From: an uncultured Candidatus Saccharibacteria bacterium
GTDB lineage: Bacteria; Patescibacteriota; Saccharimonadia; Saccharimonadales; AWTP1-31
DNA length: 55,375 nt
Direction: 5' to 3'
Assembly (NCBI GenBank): GCA_937903325.1
Contig: CALCZR010000051.1
Location: 1-55,375, forward strand
Under the pieces are notes generated by a model. That model saw only the letters and a list, made by a program, of their open reading frames with translations, made no database searches and had not been told where the DNA came from. The position numbers and the translations under genes were made by a program. Shown here one piece after another: positions 1 to 55,253 of the stretch; the stretch's first letter is position 1; every line of letters starts with the position of its first letter.

Positions 1-50
1 GAGAGGATTAACGTCCCAGACAGTATTTACAGAATCACTAAATCCAAGGG

Positions 51-79
51 TTGACTAGTCGGGAGGAAAATGCTACCAT
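51..79 (+). promoter_or_regulatory. sigma70-type promoter, TTGACT-17 nt-TGcTACCAT
   Basis: TTGACT at 51-56, a 17-nt spacer, and a TG-extended -10 TACCAT at 74-79. AGGAGG (86-91) and the ATG at 97 follow. Confidence 0.5.
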
Positions 80-22536: not shown

Positions 22537-22983
22537 TTACTCCTCCAGTAGTCCTATGGACATATCGTAGCTATAAAAATATCTCAATTCCTCGCCATCT
22601 AGTTGCACGAAGACAGGCTCTTTTAACATTATACACTTATTCCAGACCTTAGTGGACCCGTCGAACGTTGTGTAGTTTTCAGTCACAGTAAATGTGGCAG
22701 TAAGGATGTCGTCTAGGTTCCATAGGTTCATCAGGAGTTGAGCCATACTGCCAGGTATAGCATATCCATCTGGGGACTTTATGTTTAAAACTTTAACAAC
22801 TGCCTTTTTCCCAAATACGTAATATGTTTGTCCATTTATATTACTGCCAGTAGTAACAGCCCTTGGTCGCTCTAGGCTAACGCTACCCCTAGGGGGTAGG
22901 TAGCTATAGGGTACCAAAAGGGAGAGATCTTCAAACTTAATATCCTTAATTTGTAATTCATTGCTTATAACCGTCATTAGCAA
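22537..22983 (-). CDS. hypothetical tail protein immediately after the tape measure (148 aa)
   Basis: Open frame that overlaps the TMP stop. Its position is typical of a distal tail protein. Confidence 0.55.
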   Translation of the reverse strand: MLMTVISNELQIKDIKFEDLSLLVPYSYLPPRGSVSLERPRAVTTGSNINGQTYYVFGKKAVVKVLNIKSPDGYAIPGSMAQLLMNLWNLDDILTATFTVTENYTTFDGSTKVWNKCIMLKEPVFVQLDGEELRYFYSYDMSIGLLEE

Positions 22984-28900: not shown

Positions 28901-31900
28901 CACTCTTTTCGACCTTGGCCTGCTCTTCTGCGATGCGTTTGGTGTTCGAAAGTATTTTCTCTCTATATTTTGCATCTATGTCTATCTTCTTTTGTACATT
29001 ATCTCTAGCAATATCCAATTCGCTTGCGTATTGCTTCTCGACAACTGACCCATAGTTTTTAAGCAGCTCAAGTTGTATGTTTATAGATTGCTGTCTAAGT
29101 GCAACAATTTTATTGTTCACTTCAGCTTCTTTGTCTACCCTTTGTTGCTCAATAACTTTTTGATCTACAGCTTCTTTTTGTCTAGCTACTTTAATTGCCT
29201 CAGACTTATTCTTCTCTGATTGGGTCACGGCAGAAGATAGGTCTGCAATCTGAGATGGATTAGCATTCTTGCTTTGCTGGGCCTGCTGGAGATTCTTTCT
29301 TGCCAATTCTATTTGTTTATTGTACTTAGTCTCCAGATCCTTAAGCTCTTGTTCGAGTTCTAGTTTACGTTTCTGTGACTGATCCTTAAGGATAGAGGTT
29401 TTCTCTTTCTCGATCGCAGCGAAATCATCTGCATTCTTAGCCTTTGCATCAATCACAGCTTTATCAACTGCAGCCGCCTTAAGATTATTCTCAAGTGCAG
29501 TAAATTTATCAACATATGCCTGGTATGCTTTTGCATTGCCAGAGATCTCTGGGATGTCGTCGAGTCCCTTAATTAGTTCTCTTATACCCGCAGAAATATC
29601 AAGGAATGTCTTATCTAGCCCTTGATCCTTAATTTCTTTAAATCTAAGCGCGGTAGACTGAGCTCTTTCATTGAGTGCATCAATAGACTTCTGGGTTTCG
29701 TCAGACACAGAGAATGTGGAAGCAGTATCTACTGCATACTTCTTCAGCTCAGCCTGGATTTCGGCCCTAGTCTTGTTAAGACTCGCAATCGCGTCTTGTA
29801 TCTCTTTAACGCTTGTATCTGGAGATTGGCCAAGAGTTTTAACTTTGTCAAGCTGTACTACTTCCCTAGCTCTCAGATTTCCAAGCTCAGGAGATACCCT
29901 GTTACCCTCTGCTCTAGCCTTCTTTAGAGACTCTAAAAACTGTGTATTCTTCTCGATCTGCTTCTCAGATGCAGCTGCCATATCTTCATAGTTCTTGGTT
30001 GCGAATGCGATTGCGCCACCGAGTGCTACAAATGCCGCTGTTGCTGTTGCGATAACTGGATTGAGTACCAATAGCGCAGATGCCTTTTGGAATAGTCCAA
30101 CTGATACGGCTGCAAGTTTTGCAGAGAGCGAAAGTCTTGCAAATGCAATGTTTGTACCGGCCAAGGTTACGATACCGGCCTGACCAAGTGGGATCGCTAG
30201 AGCTGTAACTGTATTGTATGCTGCTACGCCAACTGCTGCCAGTTTAGATGCATTGGAGATGAAAAGTGCTGCAGCACCTAATGCAAGAAGCGACTGGGTA
30301 AATGCAGGAGTGGACGAAAGTGTATTAAGTACATCTCTAAACCCTCCAACAACAGCTGTTGCGGCTTTTAGCCCTGCAACAAGGCTTGGTCCAACGAGTT
30401 GAAACAGGTTAGTGCCAGCATCTTTTGCTGATGCCTTAAGTTGGTCAAGGCTACCAGTAAATGTCTTACTCAGAGTCTCTGCATAGTCTTGTGCGGCACC
30501 TTTACCATCACGGTACTTATTGGCAAGACCCTCCACACCATCAGAGAGAGACAGGATTGCTGCGAATCCTCTAGTTCTAAATAGTGTTGACGCTGCTGCT
30601 ACTGCATCTGCATTTCCCCTGATCTCACCAGTTAATTCATCATATGTAACTCTAGCATTTGACAGTACGTGAACAAGGTCAAATATGATGTCTCTACCCT
30701 GCCTAGTCTTACCCGCACTATCAACAAGATCTACCCCCAGCTGTTTGGCTGCATTCCTAAATGCTACCGTTGGAGATGTGGCTGCAGCAAGCACGTTACG
30801 AAGTGCAGTTGCTCCTTTATCGGCAGCGCTCAAACCTTTATTATCCAACTGTACAAGTGCCGCAAGTGTCTCTTCGAAGCTAAATCCTGCTTGTTTAGCA
30901 ATAGCACCCACAGTATTAAGGCCCTTTGAGAGATCAGATTGGGTGCCTACAGCGTCATTGGATGCGAGGGTGAGGCTATCAACTGCTCGTGCAGCATCTT
31001 TTGCGGTCATTTGAAACTGTAGCAAGTTTCTGGTTAGCTCTATTGCTGTGTCTGAAAGGTTTGTGCCTTCGGCGCTGGCCAGGAATGATGCCTGCTTAAG
31101 GATCTCTAGGCCTTCTGCGCCAGTCTGTCCTGCCCGAGTAAGGTTTGCGAGCGCCTCTGCATAATCTGCCAATCCACGCCTAGCAGTTGATATATCTGTA
31201 TCTCTAATTGCCTCAAGACTTGTCTTCACAGCTTTAAGCGTCTCAACTCCGTTGGCCTTAAGGATTGCGAATGCATTCTCAAGCTTTTGGCCCTGCTCTA
31301 CAGCCGTTGCTCCGAGTGCAATCAGAACTCCTATGAGGGCTCCAATGGACGTTACGAGAGCGATCGTATTAAATTTGCCTAAAGTAGTGGTTGTATTGTA
31401 TAAACCCATAGACTCGGCAACTCGACCAGTCCAATAAAACATACTAGACATCTGTGGGCTAATCAATCCAATTGCCCCAGCAAATGATCTCGCATAGTTA
31501 CTATACAGGCCAAAGCTTTGACCAAGTTGAGATATCTGATTAACTCCAGTGGTTGGGAGCTGTATATTTACATTAATCCCATTGAGCTTCTGGAGTGTTG
31601 GGATCAGCTGATTAAGAGCTTGAGTCACTCTACTTACATCAAGTTTTGCAATGTCATTAAGAGACTTAAGGTTAAGGTTTACGTTGATACCCTCTAGGGA
31701 CTTGAGTGCCTTTGCAAGCTGCGGTATCTGCGTTAATACATTCTGTATGTTTAGACTAGACAAAGCCTGTATGCCAGTTAGTCCTATGTTTAACTTAATA
31801 CCGTTTAATGATTTTACGGAAGCCGCAAAGCCAGATAGCTGGGTCGTAATGTTACCAAGGTTAAGGGTAGATAATTTTTGTAACTCTGATAGATTGACGC

Positions 31901-32360
31901 TAAAATTAGCAGAGCCTAAGCTCTTCATTGAGTTCATAAACCCTGTGATTTGCTTTGTGATCGCATCTAGGTTTACCTTACTCAAATCCTGGAAAGCCTT
32001 GGTATTAAACGTAAAATTATTGCTTTTTAGCTCAGTAAGCGTCTTAGACAGGCTGGCCAGCTGATTAGTAGTCTCCCCTAAGCCCTTTGAGACCGCCACC
32101 AATTTCTTGAAAGGTGTAAAGCTTAGCTTGATGTCGGAGATGCGCCTCATAGCCGATTCTAGCTGCTTAAAATTATTGGCAATGCGGTCAAAACCCACTT
32201 TTCCTAGGTTATCCAGTGCCTTTGTATTGATAGAGAGGTCGATTTCAAATTTCTTCTTGCTCAGCTGTCTCTCAAATGCGTTGACTTCATCACCTAGCTT
32301 TTTGAGACTACGCTGAAATCCAGTTATGTCAAGACTTGCAAATGACTCTAATTTTGCCAT
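22977..32360 (-). CDS. tail tape measure protein (about 3127 aa)
   Basis: Giant coiled-coil ORF downstream of the G/GT chaperone. A central hydrophobic block is present (LAAVSVGLFQKASALLVLNPVIATATAAFVALGGAIAFA). The ATG at 32360 has GGAGGGTGG upstream. The track start is 32369. Confidence 0.9.
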   Translation of the reverse strand: MAKLESFASLDITGFQRSLKKLGDEVNAFERQLSKKKFEIDLSINTKALDNLGKVGFDRIANNFKQLESAMRRISDIKLSFTPFKKLVAVSKGLGETTNQLASLSKTLTELKSNNFTFNTKAFQDLSKVNLDAITKQITGFMNSMKSLGSANFSVNLSELQKLSTLNLGNITTQLSGFAASVKSLNGIKLNIGLTGIQALSSLNIQNVLTQIPQLAKALKSLEGINVNLNLKSLNDIAKLDVSRVTQALNQLIPTLQKLNGINVNIQLPTTGVNQISQLGQSFGLYSNYARSFAGAIGLISPQMSSMFYWTGRVAESMGLYNTTTTLGKFNTIALVTSIGALIGVLIALGATAVEQGQKLENAFAILKANGVETLKAVKTSLEAIRDTDISTARRGLADYAEALANLTRAGQTGAEGLEILKQASFLASAEGTNLSDTAIELTRNLLQFQMTAKDAARAVDSLTLASNDAVGTQSDLSKGLNTVGAIAKQAGFSFEETLAALVQLDNKGLSAADKGATALRNVLAAATSPTVAFRNAAKQLGVDLVDSAGKTRQGRDIIFDLVHVLSNARVTYDELTGEIRGNADAVAAASTLFRTRGFAAILSLSDGVEGLANKYRDGKGAAQDYAETLSKTFTGSLDQLKASAKDAGTNLFQLVGPSLVAGLKAATAVVGGFRDVLNTLSSTPAFTQSLLALGAAALFISNASKLAAVGVAAYNTVTALAIPLGQAGIVTLAGTNIAFARLSLSAKLAAVSVGLFQKASALLVLNPVIATATAAFVALGGAIAFATKNYEDMAAASEKQIEKNTQFLESLKKARAEGNRVSPELGNLRAREVVQLDKVKTLGQSPDTSVKEIQDAIASLNKTRAEIQAELKKYAVDTASTFSVSDETQKSIDALNERAQSTALRFKEIKDQGLDKTFLDISAGIRELIKGLDDIPEISGNAKAYQAYVDKFTALENNLKAAAVDKAVIDAKAKNADDFAAIEKEKTSILKDQSQKRKLELEQELKDLETKYNKQIELARKNLQQAQQSKNANPSQIADLSSAVTQSEKNKSEAIKVARQKEAVDQKVIEQQRVDKEAEVNNKIVALRQQSINIQLELLKNYGSVVEKQYASELDIARDNVQKKIDIDAKYREKILSNTKRIAEEQAKVEKSVAKQQLEATLRDASKVDNTAQRGQIVQTAKANYSEQIKSINIKYAEQIRDSEISFDKQVSDHRRALNETYYKTKLDQQRALYENETRFIDTLSAKELKALQTKLEAESKTQATAGNSRSASLINEFAKKVKDQQQSNLDEFTRKTPELIKGVEDTSKQLNAAINNQDNSLSKFIDQAAGKYLSVVEKAKEQMQQIKDLIDRAGVATPAQQALLTRLQGLIDQANSKAEQAKTAAANLYQRNLNDNAADRTATLAGRTYDKSQDAKAYEQALSLYEDYWKRRLEIAKQNQDPQERAAEVSSIEDKLNEVYDRRNQILADQKQIREQALKLDIESLQYQLDSAAPEGQKTAILDAILERMREQLKIQLDILKNPSSEKERLDALAQVLQLNRDIDGIVQKRVQVELDGLAQQKESVQALISLKQAEINLQSKTAVTDSQVLNVYQARIDQSKEQVKIYKDEISALGTLRDKYLSLAEAAQKAGDVNTAGSYKASAAQIVKDIAQRNVDVVNEQANSIDLQKQKQEELFKIQTDELQTKEAILKAQDAIAGKSRDAVETARTDLKIAEERRRVAEERLSSLPSNSRGLDSAAGRSANKDVSTALQQEAEARKNLAEAELSSANQLLDREEKRRKLALDISGIGNDQVENAKIEIDIAQRKLALIAEELRTAQDLVSYGKAYQDYQDKFLEIQKQKNELVKLEADLRFKDSNDQNERDLRIAQARLALTTQAGDEVAAQTIQINAAVKSLEILRARRLDFAPGSNAGKDNEVAILEQEGKILTLNQQKVELIANQRRASIDLLNAQLVLEARQAGYGQDSVEAIRIQASRSSELVDVLKTQLQATSSKVAKEQLMKQLYDEQLNLLNLQDAKAKSIADNRKLSLDQSVSARELSLVASGQNTAANQAQLNLATDAELVGILQEQLATTSDINEKKRISIQINQVLKKQYEDQKSLQDAGIESQRASIDIQYAKAQLSLLQAGYDEGSIESLMAQIAADEQLVALAQQKLALATNNDDRQKAELDLVNAQIKAAQDRARLEDAQKQKIIKSMEQQTAIAQAQLALSAAISGAEKDIVKSAQQKLLVDQMDLAVANTKLAMAKNQEERNAALITVLQKQADIRRDMSAIEDAIYSRQKSQLDLQNSQIQLLEKQASVNLKLQGSDGNTVLDAQLAINSAISERAQKLKEIELLDSKPARSIDEQIANAKERNQLQSQYLDAIAKEVDARKQLRDAEINDIRVREQLANAQFNLGNALSYQPSGIDSGVIQAQRALSDANRTLSQAGNMANEILSKLSNNGQILASDVSTATNAISQMTSAIQSQRSALDSLAKAYEDQIQNAITLSKSVMSAQQVFSAAAEPLTKSNAREQMAVYEDLINSASQLKTQLATRLSSLLKDSTATAQMISSALNDLTSAEQDRQGFVKNFNSAAEAAGSEIKKSISDGFGLDPKVITLARKKASEIAKAEEEAKKARQDAINESQNNLANALNLFVKTFQNGSPMIKDLSSNAQPKQENRDFSKLNDPSKLSFIDNNASSATNKKLAEDLAKEYLTQQKLINEGIAIDNRYNAEAVKAIAIQNEIRAASAKEEVAANQALYKAKLKEAEVNEQIATNKLENARVEGEISKAINQKKIKNKDNIAKTELETYMAQKRAAEQEAKATEKIATARNIRADMEIEAAAVYKKTEADVLKEYQRRFDKYDQATVMAADRLTLEKLKVRAPIAKLEAEIGLARESVNQAEAVTTSLYSAAAASQAMADLASEQARAAKQFADRQANLSQQILEAEKAELEARKAMAQATKAEAEYKERYAGRLKNMELDQRESDLAANIKINEERVKQAELATEILRQQLKDTKGRSGDNTLAGVTDAIKRILEANKSWSDAAQRSLRDYTERAIDILRSIKDEISKPDTYVPQSPTPSTPERSGLQPVDNSKTVNFNFGDITQNVNTQSVAPEDVPKLWRNIKILIKNEFENLGGGC

Positions 32361-32839
32361 TACTTCCACCCTCCAAGTAACTTATTAAATATTGCTTCCA
32401 TGGTTATCCTTGATTTTACTGTGGCCGGCATTATAAATGGACCAGGCAGCATATAGTTTATACCAGATCGACCAAAGGTAATCCCTTTACCTTGTGACGC
32501 CTCTGATAATTGTTGTAGCAATCCTGGATCTATTTCTGAGGTTCCAGATCCATACTCTATGTCAGATGCATAGTCTACGCTCGATGCAAGCTTGATCGTA
32601 AACACGCCATTCTTCGAAATGTCTGATGCGCTGGTGTTGCCGAGCGACTTAAGGTTCCCCGTTCTTATGTACACAGCTCCAGGCGCGGTCCCGTACACCG
32701 ATGCAAATAGATTGGCCTGCAGATCATTGTTTGCTTGATCTACAATTGGCTTAATCGCACTGGTTAATCCAGTCTCAATTTCAGCCAGAAATCTATCTAC
32801 TTCAGATTTAAATTTTAGTCCTTCAGTCCTAATCCCCAT
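32360..32839 (-). CDS. HK97 gp10-like tail-completion family protein
   Basis: The motif DYASDIEYGSGT resembles the YA..vE.GT signature of the gp10 family. It sits unusually between the GT chaperone and the TMP. Confidence 0.45.
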   Translation of the reverse strand: MGIRTEGLKFKSEVDRFLAEIETGLTSAIKPIVDQANNDLQANLFASVYGTAPGAVYIRTGNLKSLGNTSASDISKNGVFTIKLASSVDYASDIEYGSGTSEIDPGLLQQLSEASQGKGITFGRSGINYMLPGPFIMPATVKSRITMEAIFNKLLGGWK

Positions 32840-42396: not shown

Positions 42397-42600
42397 TCAC
42401 CTACCTTTCTGTTTGATACTAAGCCTATCTTGATATGTTTCGTAAGTTTCTCTCGGTGCTCGATTGTACGCCTGATTGAGCGCTTGTGAGTCTTTTGTAA
42501 ATACGAGGTGTTGTTCACTTAACCTGAAAATACTTGTATCCAACTTAGGTTCCTCCATTTCTCTGGTATCTACAAGGCACTTTGTAGATATATCCATCAT
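42397..42600 (-). CDS. hypothetical protein (67 aa)
   Basis: Open frame; first gene leftward of the divergent control region. Confidence 0.5.
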   Translation of the reverse strand: MMDISTKCLVDTREMEEPKLDTSIFRLSEQHLVFTKDSQALNQAYNRAPRETYETYQDRLSIKQKGR

Positions 42601-42660
42601 AGCACAAAATCATATCTTCAACCACTGGGTGGTGCCTGTAAACTGCTTTTTTAGGATTGT

Positions 42661-42745
42661 TGTCTAGGACGCAATAATGCTCTAGGTTAGTACATAAAGA
42701 GTATAAAACACAGTAAAATAATTAATACTTATATAGTACTTATTA
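42661..42745 (-). repeat. conserved intergenic element, copy A (minus orientation)
   Basis: The reverse complement reads AGTACTATATAAGTATTAATTATTTTACTGTGTTTTATACTCTTTATGTACTAACCTAGAGCATT... It is near-identical to copies B, C and D. Confidence 0.8.
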
Positions 42746-42844
42746 TTGGTAGCGCTGAGTATCTTGAGCAGAATGTGTAAGGTATCTAGCTATAGTCATT
42801 GGCGGTAGACGTGAGAACCAAATGAGGCACCTGGGTATTGTACA

Positions 42845-42910
42845 TATATAGTACTTAATTAGTATTAGATATTTGTTCTGTGTTTTATATTCTTTATGTA
42901 CTAACCTAGG
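42845..42910 (+). repeat. conserved intergenic element, copy B
   Basis: The sequence is ATATAGTACTTAATTAGTATTAGATATTTGTTCTGTGTTTTATATTCTTTATGTACTAACCTAGG. It forms an inverted pair with copy A. Confidence 0.8.
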
Positions 42911-42953
42911 GAAGAAATGCATGCCAGACGCGTATCATCAAACATGCATTAAT

Positions 42954-42982
42954 TTGACTTTTATTCATCCATTTGGTATAAT
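42954..42982 (+). promoter_or_regulatory. sigma70-type promoter, TTGACT-17 nt-TATAAT
   Basis: TTGACT at 42954-42959 and TATAAT at 42977-42982. The ATG at 42989 lies 6 nt downstream with no SD. Confidence 0.65.
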
Positions 42983-42988
42983 AAACAT

Positions 42989-43309
42989 ATGTTTAGGCAT
43001 AAGTTCAAAAACAAAATAACAGAATATAAAGGGGTGAAGTACAGATCTAAACTCGAAGCTGATTATGCAAAGCACTTGTTTAAACTTAAGGATGAAGGCA
43101 CTCTCCTATGGTTTAACAGGCAAGTGATATTTGATTTTCCAGATGGAAACAGCTATAGGGTAGACTTCCTTGCATTCTATGCAAATGGCGATATGGATGT
43201 CGTCGACACCAAGGGCGTAGAGACCCCAGACTTTAAGCGCAACATTAAGAGTATGGAGTACTACTATCCATATTTTAATGTTAAGATTGTAAAGAGAGGT
43301 GATTTCTGA
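42989..43309 (+). CDS. DUF1064-like PD-(D/E)XK nuclease
   Basis: The pattern is YKGVKYRSKLEADYAKHL ... YRVDFLAFYANGDMDVVDTKG, giving a D...(D/E)xK arrangement. Confidence 0.55.
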   Translation: MFRHKFKNKITEYKGVKYRSKLEADYAKHLFKLKDEGTLLWFNRQVIFDFPDGNSYRVDFLAFYANGDMDVVDTKGVETPDFKRNIKSMEYYYPYFNVKIVKRGDF

Positions 43310-45578: not shown

Positions 45579-46195
45579 TGGGCACATACGATGCCTATGT
45601 GCAAATAATTGAAAACGAAAACATCAAAACTAAACATATCGAAGGTGGCTCGATGAATTTCATTGATTTTGAATTCATCGCTAGGAAGGCTCATGAGATA
45701 TCTAGGTTAGGGTACAGGGTAAATACTTTAGATTATTCCAGTAAGGACTCTGCATTCATCTACATTAATCTGTACGTCGATGCAAACATAACTGGGAGAC
45801 TCATCGTTGAATACACAGAAGAAGATGATTTCTCTAAAAAGAGGAAGATATCTCAACCCAGAATGTGGCTCGTAGGTCTATCTCAGGACGCACTGGATCT
45901 CATTGAGGAGCATATTAAGGTACTTGGTACCAATGACCTACATATCGTGCATAGGGCAGTGACAAAGTACCTACAGGGTACTACCTATGCGGCTAAAGTA
46001 GATAATAAACTACTGGCAATGTTCCCAGAGGAGATCGCTGATTTCTTCCTGTGGAAAGATGTCTACTGTAGAGAGCTCTCAAAGAAAGAAGCCAGGGAAA
46101 TAACCAAGTATTTAATAAGTAAAGATAAGACAGAAGTCAATAAGCCACTTATAAAGAAATTCCTTACAGCTGTGTTCCTAAACTTCTCCATGTGA
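45578..46195 (+). CDS. hypothetical protein (205 aa)
   Basis: Open frame, TGATG-coupled. Confidence 0.6.
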   Translation: MGTYDAYVQIIENENIKTKHIEGGSMNFIDFEFIARKAHEISRLGYRVNTLDYSSKDSAFIYINLYVDANITGRLIVEYTEEDDFSKKRKISQPRMWLVGLSQDALDLIEEHIKVLGTNDLHIVHRAVTKYLQGTTYAAKVDNKLLAMFPEEIADFFLWKDVYCRELSKKEAREITKYLISKDKTEVNKPLIKKFLTAVFLNFSM

Positions 46196-46426
46196 CTTCT
46201 TAACCCTACTGTTCCTCCTTTGACTCAAATGATACGCAGGCCAAATAGCCAAGAGATCAGCCCCAAGCTCTTCGGCTATTTTCCTTGCCACATGATTAGG
46301 AGGTAGGTTTCTACCAATACAATACTCAACAAGAGTCTTCCTAGGTACACCAAGATACCTGGCAAAAGTCGTTTGGTTAAATCCTGCATCTACTATGTAT
46401 TTATTAAGATTATTTTTATGCCTCAT
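46178..46426 (-). CDS. Cro/CI-type HTH regulator (82 aa), probably leaderless
   Basis: The HTH segment is FNQTTFARYLGVPRKTLVEYCIGRN. The ATG at 46426 lies 6 nt after an extended -10 box. The track N-terminal extension to 46486 is unlikely. Confidence 0.65.
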   Translation of the reverse strand: MRHKNNLNKYIVDAGFNQTTFARYLGVPRKTLVEYCIGRNLPPNHVARKIAEELGADLLAIWPAYHLSQRRNSRVKKSHGEV

Positions 46427-46432
46427 AGATAG

Positions 46433-46461
46433 ATTATAACACAGTAAGACTGGGGTGCCCA
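46433..46461 (-). promoter_or_regulatory. extended -10 promoter, TGGGCA-17 nt-TGtTATAAT
   Basis: On the minus strand the -35-like box is at 46461..46456 and the -10 box at 46438..46433. Confidence 0.55.
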
Positions 46462-46970
46462 GTGTGGTGATACATAGAACATACACTCATAGGACTCTCA
46501 TAAACATATAGAGTATTCTTATTAGATATTTTTAGGCTACATAATTTGTGCCTGTTGATGCCTCTTAAATTATACATGTTGGATATATAATAAATACTTT
46601 GTTGACTGTACTCATATCGTATCCGTTGGAAGTATTTGTAGAATATCTGTTGGTTGTACTTATTATGTATTTGTTGGCTGTACAATATGGTACTTATTGA
46701 GTACTTGTTATAAGTATTAATTCTGTTTAACAATATTCTCATAATCAAGTAAAGTAATGGGTTTACCTGCGACTACGGTAAGAAATAGGTCTCATGAAAT
46801 ACTCATGATAGTCCTAATAAATCTATTTTGCCTATCGAGACGGTAAAGTTCCACCCCTCCAAATCCAAACATCGGTTTTTTCCTACCCCACCTCTAATCC
46901 CTCAGAAGGATTTATAGGCACCTTAATGAGGCTTACAATCGCCTATAATTTAGAGCACTCATAATGAGGT

Positions 46971-47134
46971 CCTTGTTGATAGTACTCATTATGTATTTGT
47001 TGAGTATTAGTTGGTAGGTACTGTCGATGCACTAGTTGAGAGCCTTGTTGATAGTACTCATTATGCGCTTAATATGTACATGTTGGTAGGTACTGTCGAT
47101 GCACTAGTTGAGAGCCTTGTTGATAGTACTCATT
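46971..47134 (+). repeat. 72-bp-period tandem repeat, about 2.3 units
   Basis: Identical 52-bp blocks lie at 47011-47062 and 47083-47134 (TTGGTAGGTACTGTCGATGCACTAGTTGAGAGCCTTGTTGATAGTACTCATT). They are separated by different 20-bp segments. A partial copy lies at 46971-46990. Confidence 0.85.
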
Positions 47135-47245
47135 GGTGTTACTCTGTCGGTAACAGTTTACTATGTATAATTATACTAGGTACATGATGGCATGGGTGGA
47201 ATTGGTTGGTAGTGACTGTTGGTGAGAGGTGATCGAAGTTTCACC

Positions 47246-47277
47246 TGATTTATTAGTTGGATGATTTATTAGTTGGA
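47246..47277 (+). repeat. perfect 16-bp direct tandem repeat, x2
   Basis: TGATTTATTAGTTGGA occurs twice back to back. The hairpin AGGTGA/TCACCT (47227-47246) precedes it. Confidence 0.85.
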
Positions 47278-47460
47278 ACTCACACAACATTATATCCTCT
47301 ATAACCGCTCTAACCCCAATCACTAAAACCATCTCTGGCACTCATAACAAGTACTTAATATGTACCAGAAGGTACTGTACCTTGGTACTCATAATAGAGA
47401 GTCTCGTTGGTAAGTACTCTATAGATGCATATTAAGTACCTCCAGATGCCTCCCATAACA

Positions 47461-47575
47461 CTTAAAAGGCTCCCATTAAGGGAGCCCATCTATCTACTTT
47501 ACTTTTCAATCCACTTTTCTTACTTTGGCATTTGCTTTCATACCTAATAGTACCATATCCTCCCCTCCCAGTCAA
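47461..47575 (-). ncRNA. autonomous about 80-nt transcription unit: promoter, 11-codon leaderless ORF, intrinsic terminator
   Basis: On the minus strand, TTGACT (47575..47570), a 17-nt spacer and TACTAT (47552..47547). After 5 nt comes the ATG at 47541 (MKANAKVRKVD, stop at 47506). The hairpin GGCTCCC/GGGAGCC (47486..47468) plus TTTTAAG closes the unit. Confidence 0.4.
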
Positions 47576-47660
47576 CCAATCGAGCAGCGTTTTAAAACTA
47601 CAATCCTTCGTTAAGACTTTCCTAAGACTTTATTAAGGTACCATTAAGGTACATAAAGTA

Positions 47661-47699
47661 ACCCCAAGGTTTGGGCGTACAAGCAGAGGCCTTTGGGGT
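47661..47699 (-). terminator. hairpin downstream of the 47782..48192 gene
   Basis: CCCCAAAGG / CCTTGGGG imperfect stem with a large loop, followed on the minus strand by TTACTTTAT. Confidence 0.35.
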
Positions 47700-47781
47700 C
47701 TTATCGAGATACATTATGCCATAGTTGGAGTAGTCATTACGTTTACCATCTGTTTACTCTTTAATTACTGTGCTCTAAAAT

Positions 47782-48336: not shown

Positions 48337-48349
48337 CAATCCATATAAT

Positions 48350-48431
48350 ATATATACTATATAAGTACTTAACTAGTACTGTGCTTTATATCTTTTATGT
48401 ACTAACCTAGAGCATTTCGCTGGCTAGGACG
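48350..48431 (+). repeat. conserved intergenic element, copy C
   Basis: The sequence is ...TATATAAGTACTTAACTAGTACTGTGCTTTATATCTTTTATGTACTAACCTAGAGCATTTCGCTGGCTAGGACG. Confidence 0.8.
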
Positions 48432-48464
48432 TACAATAGAAATACCCAACCTTTTACAGTTGGG
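48431..48464 (-). terminator. rho-independent terminator of the dnaE operon
   Basis: Stem CCCAAC / GTTGGG (48445-48464), followed on the minus strand by TATTTCTATT. Confidence 0.55.
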
Positions 48465-48519
48465 CTTGTGAATTAATTACCTTGCTTACTACAATAATTA
48501 TTGAGTTTAGGTGTTACCA

Positions 48520-48756
48520 TTACTCTCCCAAATTGAGTCGTTGCCCTTCGGCAATCAACTCCTCTATGCCTTTAATCCTTACTGCTCGGTCAATCCTCTG
48601 TTGCTCGATTGCCACATCTGCTTCTGCCGCATCTGCTATACCTAGCTCCTCTAGCCCTAGCATAATGCTTACTTCTTCGATACTGTAAACCCGCTCCTCC
48701 CCAGAGCGGATTCTACGTAATATCTCCTGTATGTGGTTTAAAAATTCTTCTTCCAC
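48520..48756 (-). CDS. hypothetical acidic helical protein (78 aa), GTG start
   Basis: Open frame with AGGAAG upstream of the GTG. The antisense 68-aa plus-strand ORF is Ser/Ile-rich and judged a shadow. Confidence 0.55.
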   Translation of the reverse strand: MEEEFLNHIQEILRRIRSGEERVYSIEEVSIMLGLEELGIADAAEADVAIEQQRIDRAVRIKGIEELIAEGQRLNLGE

Positions 48757-48880
48757 TGCTTCCTACTTTCGGAGACCTTTGCAACCAATCGGTTGCCCAT
48801 CATCGCCCCGGATAAGATCGCCAGGGGCAAACACATCTCATGTGTTAATACTAGTACTTAACTGCTCCCAAGTCAATAGC

Positions 48881-51800
48881 CTATCTGCCGCCTACGAACT
48901 GGAGTAATAACTTAGGCTCGTAAGTATAAACAACGTCTACACCACCTATCTTATCAAGTGCATCTCCGATCAATTTTGACACTCTTAGGTCTCCTAAATC
49001 CATGGTTACAATATCGTACCCAGTATCAATCCTAACAATACCCCTAGCGCCGTCTGTAGTGCCTCTAAAATCCTCAGTAAAGGTCTGTAGGATGTTTGTA
49101 TCCACCTCTAACATATCAAGGGTAATAACGGCGATCCTGGGAAGCAAAACTAAATCATCATAAGTCAGTATCCGCTTACCAACTAGTTTTGGACTGCCAT
49201 TGTCATCGTCTGGCGTTATATCACAGTAAAAGAGGGCCGAATTGTCTATGGTTGCGCCAACAGACATTTGCTGCCAATCATCGGCAAAGACGATCATCTC
49301 AACGACTGCAGTCTCATCCTCGATCATGAGCTTAGCCATGATTTGCCCTCTCTTGGTTTGGATCTTGGTGATACTAGATATAGTGCCAGCTATGATCCCT
49401 CTTACTCTATTTTGGTAATAAGCTGGCTGAGTACTGCACCAATCATTAATCCCAGCTATAGTAGATGATCTGGCGGCCTTAAACTCTGGGTAGCTATCGA
49501 GTGGATTGCCTGATACATAGAGTCCAATTGCGTCTCTCTCCAGCTTAAGTAGCTCAACAGGAGTATATGGAGTATAATCATCAACCAGCTGTCTTGGCTT
49601 AGGATTGCGCTTTGGCAGAGGTTTGCGCAAGATATCTATACTTGCCAACTGTTGGGATCTGTCACCCAGACTATCTAATGCTCCGGCTTTGATTAACATT
49701 CCAAGAGCCCTAGAGTTGAGATCACCCTTGCTTATCCTCTGTGTTATATCAATCAGATCATCAAATTGTCTCTCCTGTCTCGCCTCAAGGATTACATCTA
49801 TCGCCCCAACCCCAAGAGATTTAATTGCTGAGAGTCCAAAATAGATTACTCCATCTGTTATTGCAAACTCTCTATGTGATTTGTTGATGTCTGGTGGCAA
49901 CACTTTAATACCATATCTACGTGCATCTTGGATATACTCTGCTACCTTATCTTGATCTCCATATTCTACAGATAATAAGGCTGCATAAAATACATCTGGA
50001 TGATTAACTTTAAGCCATGCTGTTTGATAGCTAAGCACCGAATAAGCAACTGCGTGACTACGGTTAAATCCGTAATTTGCAAACTTATTCAGCAATTCAA
50101 ATAATCTTTCAGCCTCTTCTGGGTCTACGCCATTCGCAGTCTTTGCTCCATCGATAAACTTTGTCCGTTGTTTATCCATCTCGGATTGTGATTTTTTTCC
50201 CATTGCCCTTCTCAGCAAATCGGACTCAGCTAAAGTGTATCCAGCAACAGAAGTAGAGATATGCATAATTTGCTCTTGGTATACAGGAATGCCGTAAGTC
50301 TCGGATAAGATGCTTGACAGTAGATGGCCAGATTGCGGGAAATCCTTATAAGATATCTCCTCAAGCCCATGTCTACGCTTAATATACGTACCAATGTTAT
50401 CCATTGGGCCTGGTCTATATAAACTTGTAAGTGCTACTATATCTTCGAATCGCTCTGGTTTAAGACTCTTAGATGCCTGAGAGATACCAGATCCTTCTAG
50501 TTGGAATATTCCTTTATTATCACCTCTAGATAGTAGCTTGTATACTTTAGGGTCATCTAATGGTACATCATTAAACACTACAGATATACCCTTATGTTGC
50601 AACAAGAGATCTCTAGCCTTTTCTAAGAATGTTAAAGTTCTTAAACCCAGGAAGTCCATCTTTACAAGTCCAATATCCTCAACATCATGCATATCATATT
50701 GACTAACTGATTTACCTGTAGATCTATCTACTGTTAGTGGTATCAGGTCTGTAAGAGGAGTATCGCTAATGATTAGCCCAGATGCGTGGACTCCACTGCT
50801 ACGTATTGTTCCCTCCAGGTTGAACGCATAATAATAAGCTCTCTTTACATCTTCATGCACGTCTAGGAAATCCCTAATCTCTTGCGATGAATTGTATGCC
50901 TCCATTAGTGTGGATGGCTTACCGAATTTTACAGGGATCATGCCGGTTAGGATGTTAATAATGTCATGAGGTAAACCCATTGATCTTGCTACATCTTTTA
51001 AACAGGATCTAGATAGCATGGCTCCATAAGTACCAATCATGCATACATGATCTTCGCCATATTTTTCCCTTACGTATGCAATCACCTTTTCTCTACCAGT
51101 GTCACTTATGTCAATGTCGTAATCCGCCATGGAAACTCTGTCTGGGTTGAGAAATCTCTCAAAGATTAATCCGTACTTAATTGGGTCGACGTCAGTTATA
51201 CCAATAGCATAGCCTATTAGAGACCCCGCGCCTGATCCACGACCAAGGCCAACTGCTATCCCTTGCTTCTTAGCCCAGTTGACGTAATCTTGTACGATGA
51301 GGAAGTAATCAGTAAAGCCCATCTTCTTAATCACAGTTAATTCATACTCTGCTCTCCTAATCTTATCAGGAGTAAGATCTGCACCGTATCTCTTGCGTAG
51401 CCCCTTATTGACAAGTCTGTATATCTTTGCATCAGAGGTGTCGCCCTCTTGTAACTTTGGCTGGGGGATCCTGTAGGTCCTCTTGCTACCAATTGGCAAC
51501 TCTACATTGCAAGACTCTGCAATTAATACTGTGTTATCATAGATTTCGTCTCCCCAAGTTGATCTAGGTAGGAATAGCTCCATTTCTCCTACTGACTTTG
51601 TATAAAACTCATCGCATGGGAATTTAAATCTATTCTCGTCAGACAATCTTGCTTTGGTTTGTATGGCCAAGAGAGTGTCATGCGTATCACTATCTGTCTT
51701 TTTAATGTAATGCCCATCATTGGTAGCAACCATGCCAATCCCATACTCTTTGGCTAACTCCATCAACACAGGATTAACAAGTTGTTGCTCTTGTAGGCCG

Positions 51801-52342
51801 TGATTTTGGATCTCAATAAAGTAGTTGCCTTTAAAGACTCTAAGGTACCACTCGATGGTAGATCTAGCAGATTGCATGTCTCCATTAAGGATATATTGCT
51901 GCAACTCTGCGCCAAGGCAGCCAGACATTGCTATTACACCCTTACTGTGTTGTTCTAAGATCTCATGGTCAATCCTGGGTTTGTAGTAATAGCCTTCTGA
52001 GTTGGCGAGATAGTTAAGGCGGCACAGGTTCTGGTAGCCCTCAAAGTCTTTAGCTAGCAAAGTTAAGTGATATGTCTTCTCACCCTTTTGCTTGGTATGC
52101 CTACTTCCAGCAGTTATGTATGCCTCATAACCTAAGATTGGTTTGACTCCGAATTGGATTGCATACTTGTAAAACTGTAAGACTCCCGACATATTGCCGT
52201 GGTCAGTCATTGCACATGATGGGTCTGTATCTGTAGTGTCTTTTACCCATTGCAGTAGATCTTTAATATTGCTTAGTCCATCAAGTAGGCTATAAGACGT
52301 ATGCTGATGTAAGTGGGAAAACTTAGTCATTTGGTGCTCCAT
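48881..52342 (-). CDS. dnaE: DNA polymerase III alpha subunit (DnaE-type, N-terminal PHP domain)
   Basis: The PHP motif is FSHLHQHTSYSLLDG. The palm motif is GLGRGSGAGSLIGYAIGIT, with DIDISD and FNRSHAVAYS also present. Length is 1153 aa. Confidence 0.95.
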   Translation of the reverse strand: MEHQMTKFSHLHQHTSYSLLDGLSNIKDLLQWVKDTTDTDPSCAMTDHGNMSGVLQFYKYAIQFGVKPILGYEAYITAGSRHTKQKGEKTYHLTLLAKDFEGYQNLCRLNYLANSEGYYYKPRIDHEILEQHSKGVIAMSGCLGAELQQYILNGDMQSARSTIEWYLRVFKGNYFIEIQNHGLQEQQLVNPVLMELAKEYGIGMVATNDGHYIKKTDSDTHDTLLAIQTKARLSDENRFKFPCDEFYTKSVGEMELFLPRSTWGDEIYDNTVLIAESCNVELPIGSKRTYRIPQPKLQEGDTSDAKIYRLVNKGLRKRYGADLTPDKIRRAEYELTVIKKMGFTDYFLIVQDYVNWAKKQGIAVGLGRGSGAGSLIGYAIGITDVDPIKYGLIFERFLNPDRVSMADYDIDISDTGREKVIAYVREKYGEDHVCMIGTYGAMLSRSCLKDVARSMGLPHDIINILTGMIPVKFGKPSTLMEAYNSSQEIRDFLDVHEDVKRAYYYAFNLEGTIRSSGVHASGLIISDTPLTDLIPLTVDRSTGKSVSQYDMHDVEDIGLVKMDFLGLRTLTFLEKARDLLLQHKGISVVFNDVPLDDPKVYKLLSRGDNKGIFQLEGSGISQASKSLKPERFEDIVALTSLYRPGPMDNIGTYIKRRHGLEEISYKDFPQSGHLLSSILSETYGIPVYQEQIMHISTSVAGYTLAESDLLRRAMGKKSQSEMDKQRTKFIDGAKTANGVDPEEAERLFELLNKFANYGFNRSHAVAYSVLSYQTAWLKVNHPDVFYAALLSVEYGDQDKVAEYIQDARRYGIKVLPPDINKSHREFAITDGVIYFGLSAIKSLGVGAIDVILEARQERQFDDLIDITQRISKGDLNSRALGMLIKAGALDSLGDRSQQLASIDILRKPLPKRNPKPRQLVDDYTPYTPVELLKLERDAIGLYVSGNPLDSYPEFKAARSSTIAGINDWCSTQPAYYQNRVRGIIAGTISSITKIQTKRGQIMAKLMIEDETAVVEMIVFADDWQQMSVGATIDNSALFYCDITPDDDNGSPKLVGKRILTYDDLVLLPRIAVITLDMLEVDTNILQTFTEDFRGTTDGARGIVRIDTGYDIVTMDLGDLRVSKLIGDALDKIGGVDVVYTYEPKLLLQFVGGR

Positions 52343-52985
52343 CTGGGAAGTTTAGGTATGCAAACTCTCCATGGTATTTCTTAGCCGCGTCATCATACGC
52401 AAGAGCTGCCTCTATTGCGGTTGGGTATGAGCCTATGCAAATCCTGGTCCCATTTGCGCAGATACGTGATTGATACGTCGTACATCCACTATTTGCTGTT
52501 ACGCCTTTGTATCCAAGCTTGTTGCGCTTGTGGGGCCCAGAGTTGGCTCGATTTTGATATCTGTTTGCGCTACGCAGATTACTCTTCCTGTTATCTAATT
52601 TATTTCTATTGACATGGTCAACCATTCCTGCATGCAGCAGGAATCGGTGTAGCGATATCTTCCTTGTCTCAGGCGCAATTGAAACATACCCAGATGACAT
52701 GTAAAACTTATAGTCGATGTATTTCTCAAAGTCATCAATGTCAATTATGAACCATAGATCATTTTTGCCATAAACTTTAACCTCAATTGCGCCTGTATAG
52801 TCGGACGATCTAATTATATTACTATATGGTTTTCTAGGCGTACTTCTCAACCCGCTATTTTCATACTTGCGAGATAGTGCTCTATTGCAAGCTCTACATC
52901 CGTAGGTATACCCATCTTTTGAATGCTTATCCTTATGGAAAGAATCCAGTGGCTTCTCAATACCACACTTTGTACACTTCTTCAT
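52323..52985 (-). CDS. HNH homing endonuclease with AP2 DNA-binding domain
   Basis: The N-terminal zinc finger is CTKCGIEKP...CRACN. The HNH_3-like motif is VDHVNRNKLDNRKSNLR. The AP2-like domain is YKGVT...YQSRICANGTRICIGSYPTAIEAALAYDDAAKKYHGEFAYLNF. Confidence 0.85.
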   Translation of the reverse strand: MKKCTKCGIEKPLDSFHKDKHSKDGYTYGCRACNRALSRKYENSGLRSTPRKPYSNIIRSSDYTGAIEVKVYGKNDLWFIIDIDDFEKYIDYKFYMSSGYVSIAPETRKISLHRFLLHAGMVDHVNRNKLDNRKSNLRSANRYQNRANSGPHKRNKLGYKGVTANSGCTTYQSRICANGTRICIGSYPTAIEAALAYDDAAKKYHGEFAYLNFPDGAPND

Positions 52986-53765: not shown

Positions 53766-53794
53766 ATGGTACATCTACTGCCCGGATATGTCAA
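53766..53794 (-). promoter_or_regulatory. sigma70-type promoter, TTGACA-17 nt-TACCAT
   Basis: On the minus strand the -35 box is at 53794..53789 and the -10 box at 53771..53766. Confidence 0.6.
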
Positions 53795-53865
53795 GATTTC
53801 CTCCCGATTTGAACTTGATTTACTCTGTAGTATTTTACTCCCGAAATCTGTTATTTATAGTACTA

Positions 53866-53938
53866 TATATATACTTATTATTTTACTGTGTTTTATATCT
53901 TTTATGTACTAACCTAGAGCATTTCGACGTCTAGGACG
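53866..53938 (+). repeat. conserved intergenic element, copy D
   Basis: The sequence is TATAGTACTATATATATACTTATTATTTTACTGTGTTTTATATCTTTTATGTACTAACCTAGAGCATTTCGACGTCTAGGACG. Confidence 0.8.
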
Positions 53939-53966: not shown

Positions 53967-53995
53967 TTGACATCGGTTGTTGCAAATGGTATGCT
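53967..53995 (+). promoter_or_regulatory. sigma70-type promoter, TTGACA-17 nt-TATGCT
   Basis: TTGACA at 53967-53972 and TATGCT at 53990-53995. A leader of about 50 nt with AAGGGAGA precedes the ATG. Confidence 0.6.
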
Positions 53996-54049: not shown

Positions 54050-54355
54050 ATGAATATGGTAGAGATGAATAGGATTGACCTAATTGAAGATGGCAGTGGC
54101 GGCTTGTGGGCAGAAGCAAGAGATCTTCACGCATTCATAGGCATAGATAGGGGTTACGAGGAATGGCTGGATGATACGATTCTTAACCCCAGTCATGGAT
54201 TTATAGAAGGAGTCGATTACGAAGTGTATCTAGATGGGTCAACTAAAGAGTACTACATTAGCAGGATCATGACCGGGGATTTGGCTATGATGGCGCATGG
54301 AGAGCAAAGGGGTAGAGAGGCTAGAATCCATATGGCAAAAGGAGAGCGAATATGA
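54050..54355 (+). CDS. AntA/AntB-type antirepressor N-terminal domain protein
   Basis: The segment is ARDLHAFIGIDRGYEEWLDDTILNPSHGFIEGVDYEV. The alternative ATG is 54056. Confidence 0.55.
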   Translation: MNMVEMNRIDLIEDGSGGLWAEARDLHAFIGIDRGYEEWLDDTILNPSHGFIEGVDYEVYLDGSTKEYYISRIMTGDLAMMAHGEQRGREARIHMAKGERI

Positions 54356-55028
54356 TTCAAATCAAAGAGCATAATGGCAAACAACTAGTAGACGGAAGAG
54401 AACTTCACACATTTCTTGGGGTGGGTAGGCGATTACACCTTGGATCCAAGTGGTAATCGCTGAATACGAGTTTTTAGAGGGTGAAGATTTTGTTGTCCTG
54501 GAGAACTTCCCCGATCGGGGAGATATTACAAGAACTGTTGGGAGGCCCTCGAAGGAGTATGCAATTACTCTTGATATGGCAAAGCAGCTAACGATGGTTG
54601 ATCGTAGCGATAAAGGCAAAGAGGCTAGAAAATATTTTCTAGCCTGCGAGAGACAACTAGAGCAGATTCGCAAACAGATCACACCACTTGGGGCAACGTT
54701 GGAAAATGCTCTACGTCAAATGGTAGAGTCAGAGGTTGGCCGTATAACCGCAGAGATCATGGGCGACATGCGTCTGGCTGTAAGTGAACTTAAGGCTCTA
54801 GGCGCCACAGCACAACTAGAGACAAACTTTGTAACCATAGCTGGATTCCTTAGTATAACTGGAGTGAAGTATAAGACGGAAAATGAGATCAAGATATTGG
54901 GTCAGCGGGTCAGTAGATACTGTAAGGAGAATGGCATACCGATTACGAAAGTACATTCGCCCAAGTGGGGCAAAGTCAATGCCTACCCTAAAGAAGTCTT
55001 AGAAATGTTGATCGGAGCTACCGCATGA
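54352..55028 (+). pseudogene. antirepressor (Ant N-domain plus KilAC-like C-domain) split by a -1 frame change
   Basis: The N-terminal fragment 54352..54456 encodes MIQIKEHNGKQLVDGRELHTFLGVGRR.. The rest, in the -1 frame and open from 54429, encodes TPWIQVVIAEYEFLEGEDF...GRPSKEYAITLDMAKQLTMVDRSDKGKEARKYFLACE. Together they mirror the intact domain of the upstream gene. Confidence 0.55.
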
Positions 55029-55227: not shown

Positions 55228-55253
55228 ATCCCGGGGTTATTCCCGGGATTTAT
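55228..55253. terminator. bidirectional terminator hairpin
   Basis: Stem ATCCCGGG / CCCGGGAT with a 6-nt loop, between convergent genes. Confidence 0.65.

Follow-up and report, generated by a model that had tools for sequence, protein, structure and literature searches.

A conserved intergenic cassette, best explained as a transcription-control element, in one lineage of uncultured siphoviruses

The window analysed here, that is the stretch of 55,375 nucleotides from contig CALCZR010000051.1, belongs to a novel siphovirus-type phage whose genome amounts to about 59.6 kb once 4,249 bp absent from the window, which lie between its end and its start, are added. In its intergenic gaps this genome harbours five copies of a cassette of about 95 bp organised around an asymmetric 35-bp core, ACTGTGYTTTATAYYYTTTATGTACTAACCTAGRG. 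Judging from its sequence and distribution, this element is best explained as a cassette that controls transcription at the DNA level and is restricted to a single lineage of uncultured siphoviruses. Among the roles considered, we tentatively favour, at somewhat below an even chance, that of the core as a factor-dependent, phage-specific promoter of the middle or late class, which does not follow the sigma70 consensus.

Copies, anatomy and conservation of the cassette

When the pattern ACTGTGYTTTATAYYYTTTATGTACTAACCTAGRG was searched over the whole window with up to three mismatches allowed, exactly four matches were obtained, compared with none in any of 100 dinucleotide-preserving shuffles (chance expectation 0). 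Core A lies on the minus strand at 42680-42714 and the three others on the plus strand, at 42877-42911 (B, with one mismatch), 48378-48412 (C) and 53885-53919 (D). The four copies listed in an earlier note on this DNA are thus recovered, but a fifth one, E, had been overlooked. Severed by the start of the window, it has left at positions 1-27 (plus strand) a stretch that matches the post-core part of the other cassettes, with the last three nucleotides of the core (GAG, 1-3), a variable stretch of 10 nt and a second box, TCCCAGAC, at 14-21. In four runs, every Logan contig reaches exactly 27 nt upstream before breaking off, as expected from an assembler working with k=31, which stops at a repeat. 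The complete copy E is seen in the full-length ENA contigs L081 (9643-9677) and L076 (12584-12618). When the reconstructed 59.6-kb genome was searched with a whole-cassette profile, the four cassettes of the window and this fifth one were returned, the next match having an E-value of 0.23.

The cassette consists, from left to right, of a left flank, an AT-rich segment of GTAC palindromes, the core, 10 nt and box 2 (YAGRAC). The left flank is semi-conserved and occurs in two types, one A/C/D-like and the other B/E-like. The AT-rich segment is composed of the GTAC-centred palindromes TATAGTACTATA and T(T/A)AAGTACTTAA, whose centres are 11 bp apart. Such palindromes (TATAGTACTATA, TTAAGTACTTAA) are perfect or near-perfect, and the pattern [AT][AT]AGTACT[AT][AT] is confined to the five cassettes. 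The core displays the invariant blocks CTGTG, TATA and TATGTACTA, with a further GTACTA half-site in its invariant middle. In all 12 copies examined here and in relatives, exactly 10 poorly conserved nucleotides separate it from box 2. The core delimited in the earlier note stands, but conservation reaches farther, to this second box at a fixed distance, and the conserved stretch comprises about 40 bp of AT-rich DNA, 35 bp of core and 18 bp. Beyond box 2, a weaker homology continues into a sigma70-type promoter.

Cassette A (42661-42755, minus strand), which faces the structural and late operon, has its AT-rich GTAC palindromes at 42715-42755 and its box 2, GTCCTAGAC, at 42662-42670. Cassette B (42837-42931, plus strand) carries AT-rich boxes at 42843-42876 and box 2, TGCCAGAC, at 42922-42929. 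As previously described, these two copies face away from each other over about 100 bp, which is the distance between their AT-rich ends; their core starts are 162 bp apart. Cassette C (48337-48431, plus strand) shows three GTAC or ATAC centres 11 bp apart and box 2, GCTAGGAC, at 48423-48430. It is an orphan, without any gene downstream on the same strand. Cassette D (53848-53938, plus strand) combines AT-rich boxes at 53848-53884 with box 2, TCTAGGAC, at 53930-53937. All five cassettes are intergenic, in agreement with the earlier note.

Relatives were recovered by pattern searches and by protein-anchored searches. The comparison covers 12 copies from at least five lineages, the relatives all falling within one narrow lineage. 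Cassette A alone is found in L001/L006 (72-83% nucleotide identity to the window) and in L089/L090, in which the resolvase-like DUF1064 protein encoded behind B is 82% identical in amino acids. Both A and B are carried by L084-L087 (DUF1064 72%), B by L088 (83%) and L091 (67%), and D by the variant strain L079. The 12 copies all agree at 24 of the 35 core positions; six further positions vary in one copy each, and the interval from core to box 2 contains no insertion or deletion. The neighbouring proteins are only 59-72% identical (down to 59-64% for the adjoining ORFan proteins), and in a three-way comparison the spacers adjoining the core cannot be aligned. The flanks of copy C display, over four metagenome runs, about 24 variable sites and several insertions or deletions and its core none, with the caveat that the reads of all copies collapse onto the core. 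The element is thus kept in related genomes, one of the points on which the earlier note had made its proposal depend, and it is under strong selection, apparently as a DNA signal.

Exact core patterns retrieved a single true relative from IMG/VR, namely L001, the four other matches (17-mers) being due to chance. Exact patterns of 19-23 nt had no match in the representative genomes of 185,579 species or in Joint Genome Institute (JGI) metagenome contigs, and a blastn search of the A/B region gave none in 50,697 phage records. Among 65 metagenome loci collected via DnaE (at most 42% identity, except L049, which lies on a 780-kb contig and reaches 57% in its best segment), none contained a core-like sequence or an analogous dispersed repeat. 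The relatives found via the large terminase (L007-L010, 51-56% identity) were rejected, being differently organised phages.

The core and its flanking promoters

Back-to-back sigma70-type promoters flank every cassette, whose orientation follows that of the downstream one, 32-47 nt away (about 70 nt in A). The promoters that the earlier note placed about 45 nt past B and D were indeed found, at 42 nt and 47 nt, but the other copies also have one, decayed in C. Behind B it reads TTGACT-17-TATAAT with an upstream TG (42954-42982, plus strand). Behind D, TTGACA-17-TATGCT, also with an upstream TG (53967-53995, plus strand), drives two AntA-domain genes. Behind E, TTGACT-17-TACCAT (51-79, plus strand, 47 nt past the core; same sequence at 9725-9753 of L081) drives a helix-turn-helix (HTH) gene, 97-327, and the nucleotide-metabolism operon. 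The downstream counterpart at C (48466-48495, plus strand) is a weak TTGTGA-18-TACAAT; in the alignment it falls at the place of the other cassettes' sigma70 promoters, in decayed form, with cTTGCT against TATGCT in D. On the A side, the start of the late operon (42568-42604, minus strand) displays an extended -10, TGcTATGAT (42596-42604), about 79 nt from core A and without -35, directly followed by the palindrome ATCTACAAAGTGCCTTGTAGAT (42568-42589, minus strand; 8-bp stem and 6-nt loop). Extended -10 and palindrome are both kept in L001 and L084. The palindrome ends in GTAGAT, resembling the 3' handle of Cas12a repeats (UCUAC-loop-GUAGAU), and it could be a 5' stabiliser of the messenger RNA (mRNA), an operator or a repeat mimic.

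In the leftward direction, D is divergent from the promoter of the DnaE operon, TTGACA-17-TACCAT (53766-53794, minus strand), E is bordered by TGGAAA-17-TATAAT, and C has the weak candidate TTGCGT-17-TATGAT. The terminator hairpin of the minus-strand DnaE operon (48444-48465) adjoins cassette C in convergent orientation. Relative to the rightward start, the core begins about 112-125 bp upstream; relative to the leftward one, the AT-rich boxes lie about 100-140 bp upstream. Between core and -35 there are 47 nt in both D and E, 41-42 nt in three copies of B and, one helical turn shorter, 32 nt in L091. Behind B, the ATG of the DUF1064 gene comes 6 nt after TATAAT (42977-42991) with no Shine-Dalgarno sequence. 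This TATAAT-N6-ATG arrangement is kept in six lineages (the window, L001, L084, L088, L089 and L091), and the DUF1064 mRNA appears to have a conserved leaderless start, a trait common in Actinobacteria and Deinococcus-Thermus.

Consensus scans detected no sigma70 site inside any core, the best hand alignment being CTGTGT-18-TAACCT. Since the sigma70 promoters of the region are near-consensus, the core would represent a different class of signal. Moreover, it seems to be independent of the promoter downstream, because core C is perfect in spite of its decayed -10 and B was added upstream of a complete promoter. By its length, the conserved stretch would correspond to about a polymerase footprint, and it is much larger than the operator of a dimeric HTH protein. 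It is this combination, an asymmetric and footprint-sized stretch, independent of the sigma70 promoter and placed at operon starts in the direction of transcription, that leads us to favour a factor-dependent promoter. The case of L088, in which the inner three bases of TAACCT are all changed (TAGAGT) with TA...T retained, may bring weak support to this reading.

From these features we infer promoter activity and, with it, a start site, a factor and a timing. The host RNA polymerase would use the core only with a putative phage-encoded specificity factor. CTGTG would occupy the -35 position and TATGTAC-TAnnnT (TAACCT) the -10 position, with transcription starting just past CCTAGAG. The 10 variable nucleotides and box 2 would then be the first transcribed bases, within the polymerase footprint, and the GTAC palindromes upstream could be operator or UP-like sites for a small phage HTH protein. 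As each cassette stands in tandem with, and upstream of, an ordinary early sigma70 promoter, one operon could be read in two temporal modes.

Several observations weigh against a promoter. Searches of the 59.6-kb genome with Pfam, PHROGs and NCBIfam revealed neither a sigma factor nor a known late activator (RinA, ArpU, Alt, Ltr). Likewise, no RNA polymerase domain was found by Pfam and PHROGs in large and small open reading frames, or by precomputed Pfam in the genes of the 4.2-kb gap. The required factor is thus hypothetical. Four of the five copies are located upstream of early-looking operons with strong promoters, only A facing late genes, and the late operon owns the conserved extended -10 mentioned above. 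On a transcript from B, the DUF1064 start codon would not be preceded by a Shine-Dalgarno sequence. An upstream regulatory site would be equally compatible with the near-constant spacing to the downstream promoter. Finally, in the RNA-labelled runs that hold the phage, it is present as contigs with flat depth, which break at the repeat. As to the ORFans, searches of PDB sequences with three of them gave no match, and the AlphaFold2 model of a 205-amino acid one was of low confidence (pLDDT 59.5) and matched no fold.

A bolder version of the promoter reading, which we hold to be unlikely, is that of a new promoter class, CTGTG-N13-TATGTAC-TAnnnT with a fixed box at +15. Here a reprogramming phage ORFan unlike known sigma factors, appropriators and activators would be at work, and C would be read antisense into the DnaE operon as a late shut-off. 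The host may in this case be of a low-GC Gram-positive or actinobacterial lineage.

The main alternative is that the cassette serves as an operator or enhancer platform, where bound phage proteins would switch the sigma70 promoters on either side, as p4 does in phi29. This is possible, if somewhat unlikely, and compatible with a promoter. The candidate binders are the Xre-type HTH proteins, of which the genome encodes two (97-327 and 46178-46486), or the AntA-domain proteins. Once bound, they would turn on the late promoter at A, which has no -35, and damp the early promoters of consensus type at B, D and E, perhaps also the leftward ones. The GTAC palindromes, 11 bp apart (TATAGTACTATA, TTAAGTACTTAA) and specific to the cassettes, argue for such binding, together with the third half-site, GTACTA, in the invariant heart of the core. 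The cassettes stand midway between divergent starts (about -85 to -125 for the rightward and -100 to -140 for the leftward one), at a spacing to the downstream -35 that is constant within copy types, with one deviant, L091, off by 10 bp. A late promoter without -35 facing early ones with consensus -35 is also what a switch would act on; E is directly upstream of the HTH gene, as autoregulation predicts, and the orphan C could serve the leftward 150-amino acid gene. However, 35 contiguous, asymmetric and near-invariant bp plus a fixed second box exceed the needs of known HTH operators and p4 sites. An inverted repeat of p4 type (CTTTTT-N15-AAAATG) is absent and no homologue of p4 was found; the distance to the start site is also greater than that of classical class I activators. 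Furthermore, B-type (42 nt) and D/E-type (47 nt) spacings differ by 5 bp, half a helical turn. The earlier note had put forward both a promoter and an operator or enhancer. Both stay alive and share most of the probability, because the element is a constrained DNA signal in non-transcribed gaps, with operator-type GTAC palindromes and a core unlike the sigma70 consensus.

Copy dynamics and less probable roles

Cassette B is polymorphic. Present in the window, L084-L088 and L091, it is absent from L001 and L089/L090, where the DUF1064 promoter directly follows the left flank of A. As the left flank of B resembles that of E, B probably arose by copying of an E-type cassette. Core positions 14-16 vary without tracking orthology, which suggests exchange between copies. 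A co-occurring strain contains a hybrid cassette, in which an E-type body passes at TTGAC into an AntA-type promoter, and in other strains the sequence from 48466 rightward, past the terminator that follows C, is replaced. Given the polymorphism of B, the hybrid and this replacement, the cassettes seem to behave as recombination borders, by analogy with the PeSL cassettes of T4-type phages; they would multiply and swap flanks via homologous recombination. This replaced region, 48466-48982, includes a gene for a 78-amino acid protein and looks like a variable gene slot: in the other strains (loose ends in runs X5, X8, X9 and X14) the sequence found there is unrelated.

Two contigs, L077 and L082 (65.3-65.4 kb, versus 59.5 kb for L076 and L081), include a second, 97%-identical module encoding helicase, PrimPol and a 213-amino acid protein, with different AntA genes. 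This extra module is bounded by an E-type cassette. The 65-kb form may represent a genuine tandem duplication; it may equally have arisen in assembly, if two strains of 97% identity were chained through the repeat. The pairs of AntA-domain genes (anti-repressor-like, probably DNA-binding) situated behind D (54056-55028) and behind E' (L077 12888-13831) differ between strains. Apparent joints from A to C on opposite strands, or skipping from C to D, share only 47-55 nt of cassette; we read them as resemblance between copies, not as proven rearrangement.

Such events are what would be expected if the repeats themselves were mainly recombination substrates, sites of replication or other DNA transactions (with the AT-rich segment as unwinding stretch for loading of an initiator or PrimPol), or a selfish mobile cassette, and played no direct part in transcription. 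The insertion/deletion polymorphism of B, the replaced sequence to the right of C, the hybrid and the exchange hinted at by positions 14-16 all fit, and the phage encodes an NrS-1-like PrimPol. Nevertheless we regard this explanation as improbable. Homology suffices for recombination, and an invariant 35-mer amid diverging flanks argues for a sequence-specific reader. No transposase, integrase or invertase was found in the genome and the cassettes have no terminal inverted repeats; recombinase or invertase sites were dropped from consideration, no recombinase gene being present. NrS-1-like PrimPol enzymes recognise short template motifs, with known sites of 3-8 nt (PMC8718748), as opposed to 35 bp for the core, which makes a primase site unlikely. 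A better candidate origin of replication is offered by 46750-47780, about 1 kb of non-coding DNA with tandem repeats of 72 bp (2.3 copies, 46971-47134) and 16 bp (two copies, 47246-47277) and six AGTACT sites.

The core might also act at the RNA level, as a leader for nut/put-like antitermination, as a processing site or, at C, as a short regulatory RNA, transcribed from a weak upstream -10-like box. We consider this improbable as well. Hexamers resembling a -10 (TAATAT or TATTAT, 6-10 nt before the core) do occur in seven of nine full copies, and D possesses a weak TTTATA-16-TATTAT ending just before the core, but the box is absent in C and L090. Transcripts from the sigma70 promoters never contain the core, since these strong promoters lie downstream. 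A hairpin is present 32 nt past copy C, with its T-run however on the opposite strand. The CCTAG(A)/(T)CTAGG pairing pointed out in the earlier note can form in C and D, but in these two of the 12 copies only, being absent from A, B, E and the relatives, and two variable core positions disrupt predicted pairs. Scanning both strands of the whole window gave no Rfam match at the gathering score, and a transfer RNA scan was negative. RNAalifold on six copies gave weak folds of -2.05 and -4.12 kcal/mol, with 0 pairs showing two-sided (compensatory) change. With no Rfam match, no conserved fold and no covariation, the small-RNA role suggested in the earlier note is left unsupported.

That the core mimics a host CRISPR (clustered regularly interspaced short palindromic repeats) repeat, as a solitary repeat unit or RNA anti-CRISPR, has a negligible probability: the length of 35 bp and the single dispersed copies behind AT-rich DNA would fit, but there is no repeat-spacer-repeat layout and no conserved hairpin, and the 19-23-nt patterns are unmatched in the species genomes and JGI contigs searched above. 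Other identities were discarded. A promoter for a phage polymerase of T7, N4 or crAss type was rejected as no polymerase gene was found, and a MotA box was dropped because TGCTTTA is present in copy C only. Resemblances to boxA, the DnaA box, CRP half-sites and promoters of sigma-B/F/H/E/K, ECF, sigma-54 or TcdR type were considered and dropped as well.

Comparison with known systems and features of the phage

By its sequence and layout, the cassette appears to belong to a known kind, the lineage-private repeated intergenic regulatory cassettes of phages. A close parallel is found in the mobile PeSL cassettes of T4-type phages, which combine an early promoter and a terminator stem-loop (PMC2839356, PMC4122927). 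Both are repeated, conserved non-coding units with an early sigma70 promoter at gene-module borders, and here the homology between cassettes A, B, D and E extends as far as TTGAC...TAnnnT. Both also mark insertion, deletion or replacement differences between close relatives, in the present case at B, in the slot to the right of C and in the E/D hybrid. In contrast to PeSL, there is no conserved stem-loop here, only C adjoining a terminator, which belongs to the opposite strand. The most conserved part is a non-sigma70 core upstream of the promoter, and the five copies are found in a siphovirus unrelated to T4.

In phi29, p4 switches between the divergent early A2b/A2c promoters and the late A3 promoter. 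The arrangement echoes ours: a site between back-to-back promoters, the late one without -35 and the early one consensus, with phased T/A tracts. However, besides the missing p4 homologue and inverted repeat, our sites are farther from the starts and distributed at five places around the genome. Phage-specific promoters are well known from T4 middle genes (MotA/AsiA) and from SPO1 (gp28 and gp33/34), which act via the host polymerase, and from the T7 class, which relies on a phage polymerase. The cassettes share with them long, near-identical sequences at operon starts, unlike the host consensus and possibly in tandem with early host-type promoters. They differ in two respects: neither a phage RNA polymerase or sigma factor nor a homologue of MotA or AsiA was detected, and the promoter here is a predicted one.

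The stoperators of L5 are asymmetric, 13-14 bp long, present in 20-30 copies and located inside transcription units, and the start-associated sequences of Cluster K overlap ribosome-binding sites. An L5-type stoperator was rejected for our element, which has five copies, a 35-bp core and a location in non-transcribed gaps upstream of promoters. Among the other intergenic motifs of actinobacteriophages are a 30-bp repeat with five copies in Microbacterium Cluster EI and, in Cluster EC, a motif of 18 bp that occurs 12 times (PMC7302621). Like the cassette, the actinobacteriophage motifs are lineage-private, asymmetric and conserved, lie in short intergenic gaps, are oriented with transcription and mostly have no known function. 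They show no sequence similarity with it. The cassette has 35 bp plus accessory boxes and is positioned upstream of promoters; moreover, Cluster EI encodes a sigma factor and none was found in this phage. The late activators RinA, ArpU, Ltr and Alt of Gram-positive phages have sites upstream of terS (PMC3152322, PMC3753634). Copy A similarly precedes the terminase and structural operon, but no protein of such a family was found here and the other four copies are away from the late operon.

Motifs of this kind have been reported in many phage genomes, almost none with an assigned reader or mechanism. The present cassette is unusually information-rich, with 24 of 35 positions invariant and, at fixed distances, two accessory boxes. 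Should the core be a promoter, this would point to a previously unknown way of redirecting host polymerase and provide a clean bait for the factor; should it be a binding platform, it would be a compact example of a single site that co-ordinates early and late promoters standing back to back. In either case the cassette can be used as an operon-start marker for annotating this phage group, and its repeats explain breaks or mis-joins at cassette sites in assemblies of the group.

The phage sequences come from wastewater, activated sludge and freshwater metagenomes. Their best matches among known proteins are distant (DnaE at most 42%, capsid at most 27% and PrimPol at most 34% identity), and the phage thus appears to be without close described relative. 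Strong GGAGG ribosome-binding sites, many GTG/TTG starts, TG-extended -10 elements, the leaderless start and the capsid matches, which among isolate phages fall only on actinobacteriophages (about 26% identity), point loosely to a Gram-positive or actinobacterial host; an endolysin search made for host assignment returned no match.

The structural genes include those for the large terminase, portal, capsid protein and a tape measure of 3130 amino acids (22977-32369), which at 0.15 nm per residue corresponds to a very long tail of about 0.45 micrometre. Genes for replication and nucleotide metabolism encode a DnaE-type Pol III alpha, ThyX, dCTP deaminase, ligase and a class II ribonucleotide reductase (1867-6318), whose intein carries a LAGLIDADG homing endonuclease. 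The missing 4,249 bp add a helicase, the NrS-1-like PrimPol and the 213-amino acid protein. A free-standing HNH endonuclease with an AP2 DNA-binding domain (52323-52985) is encoded directly upstream of the DnaE gene. At the other end, the AntA operon is closed by a terminator, the GC-rich hairpin CCCGGGGTTATTCCCGGG followed by a T-run (55229-55250), and the window ends 125 bp further on, in the helicase region.

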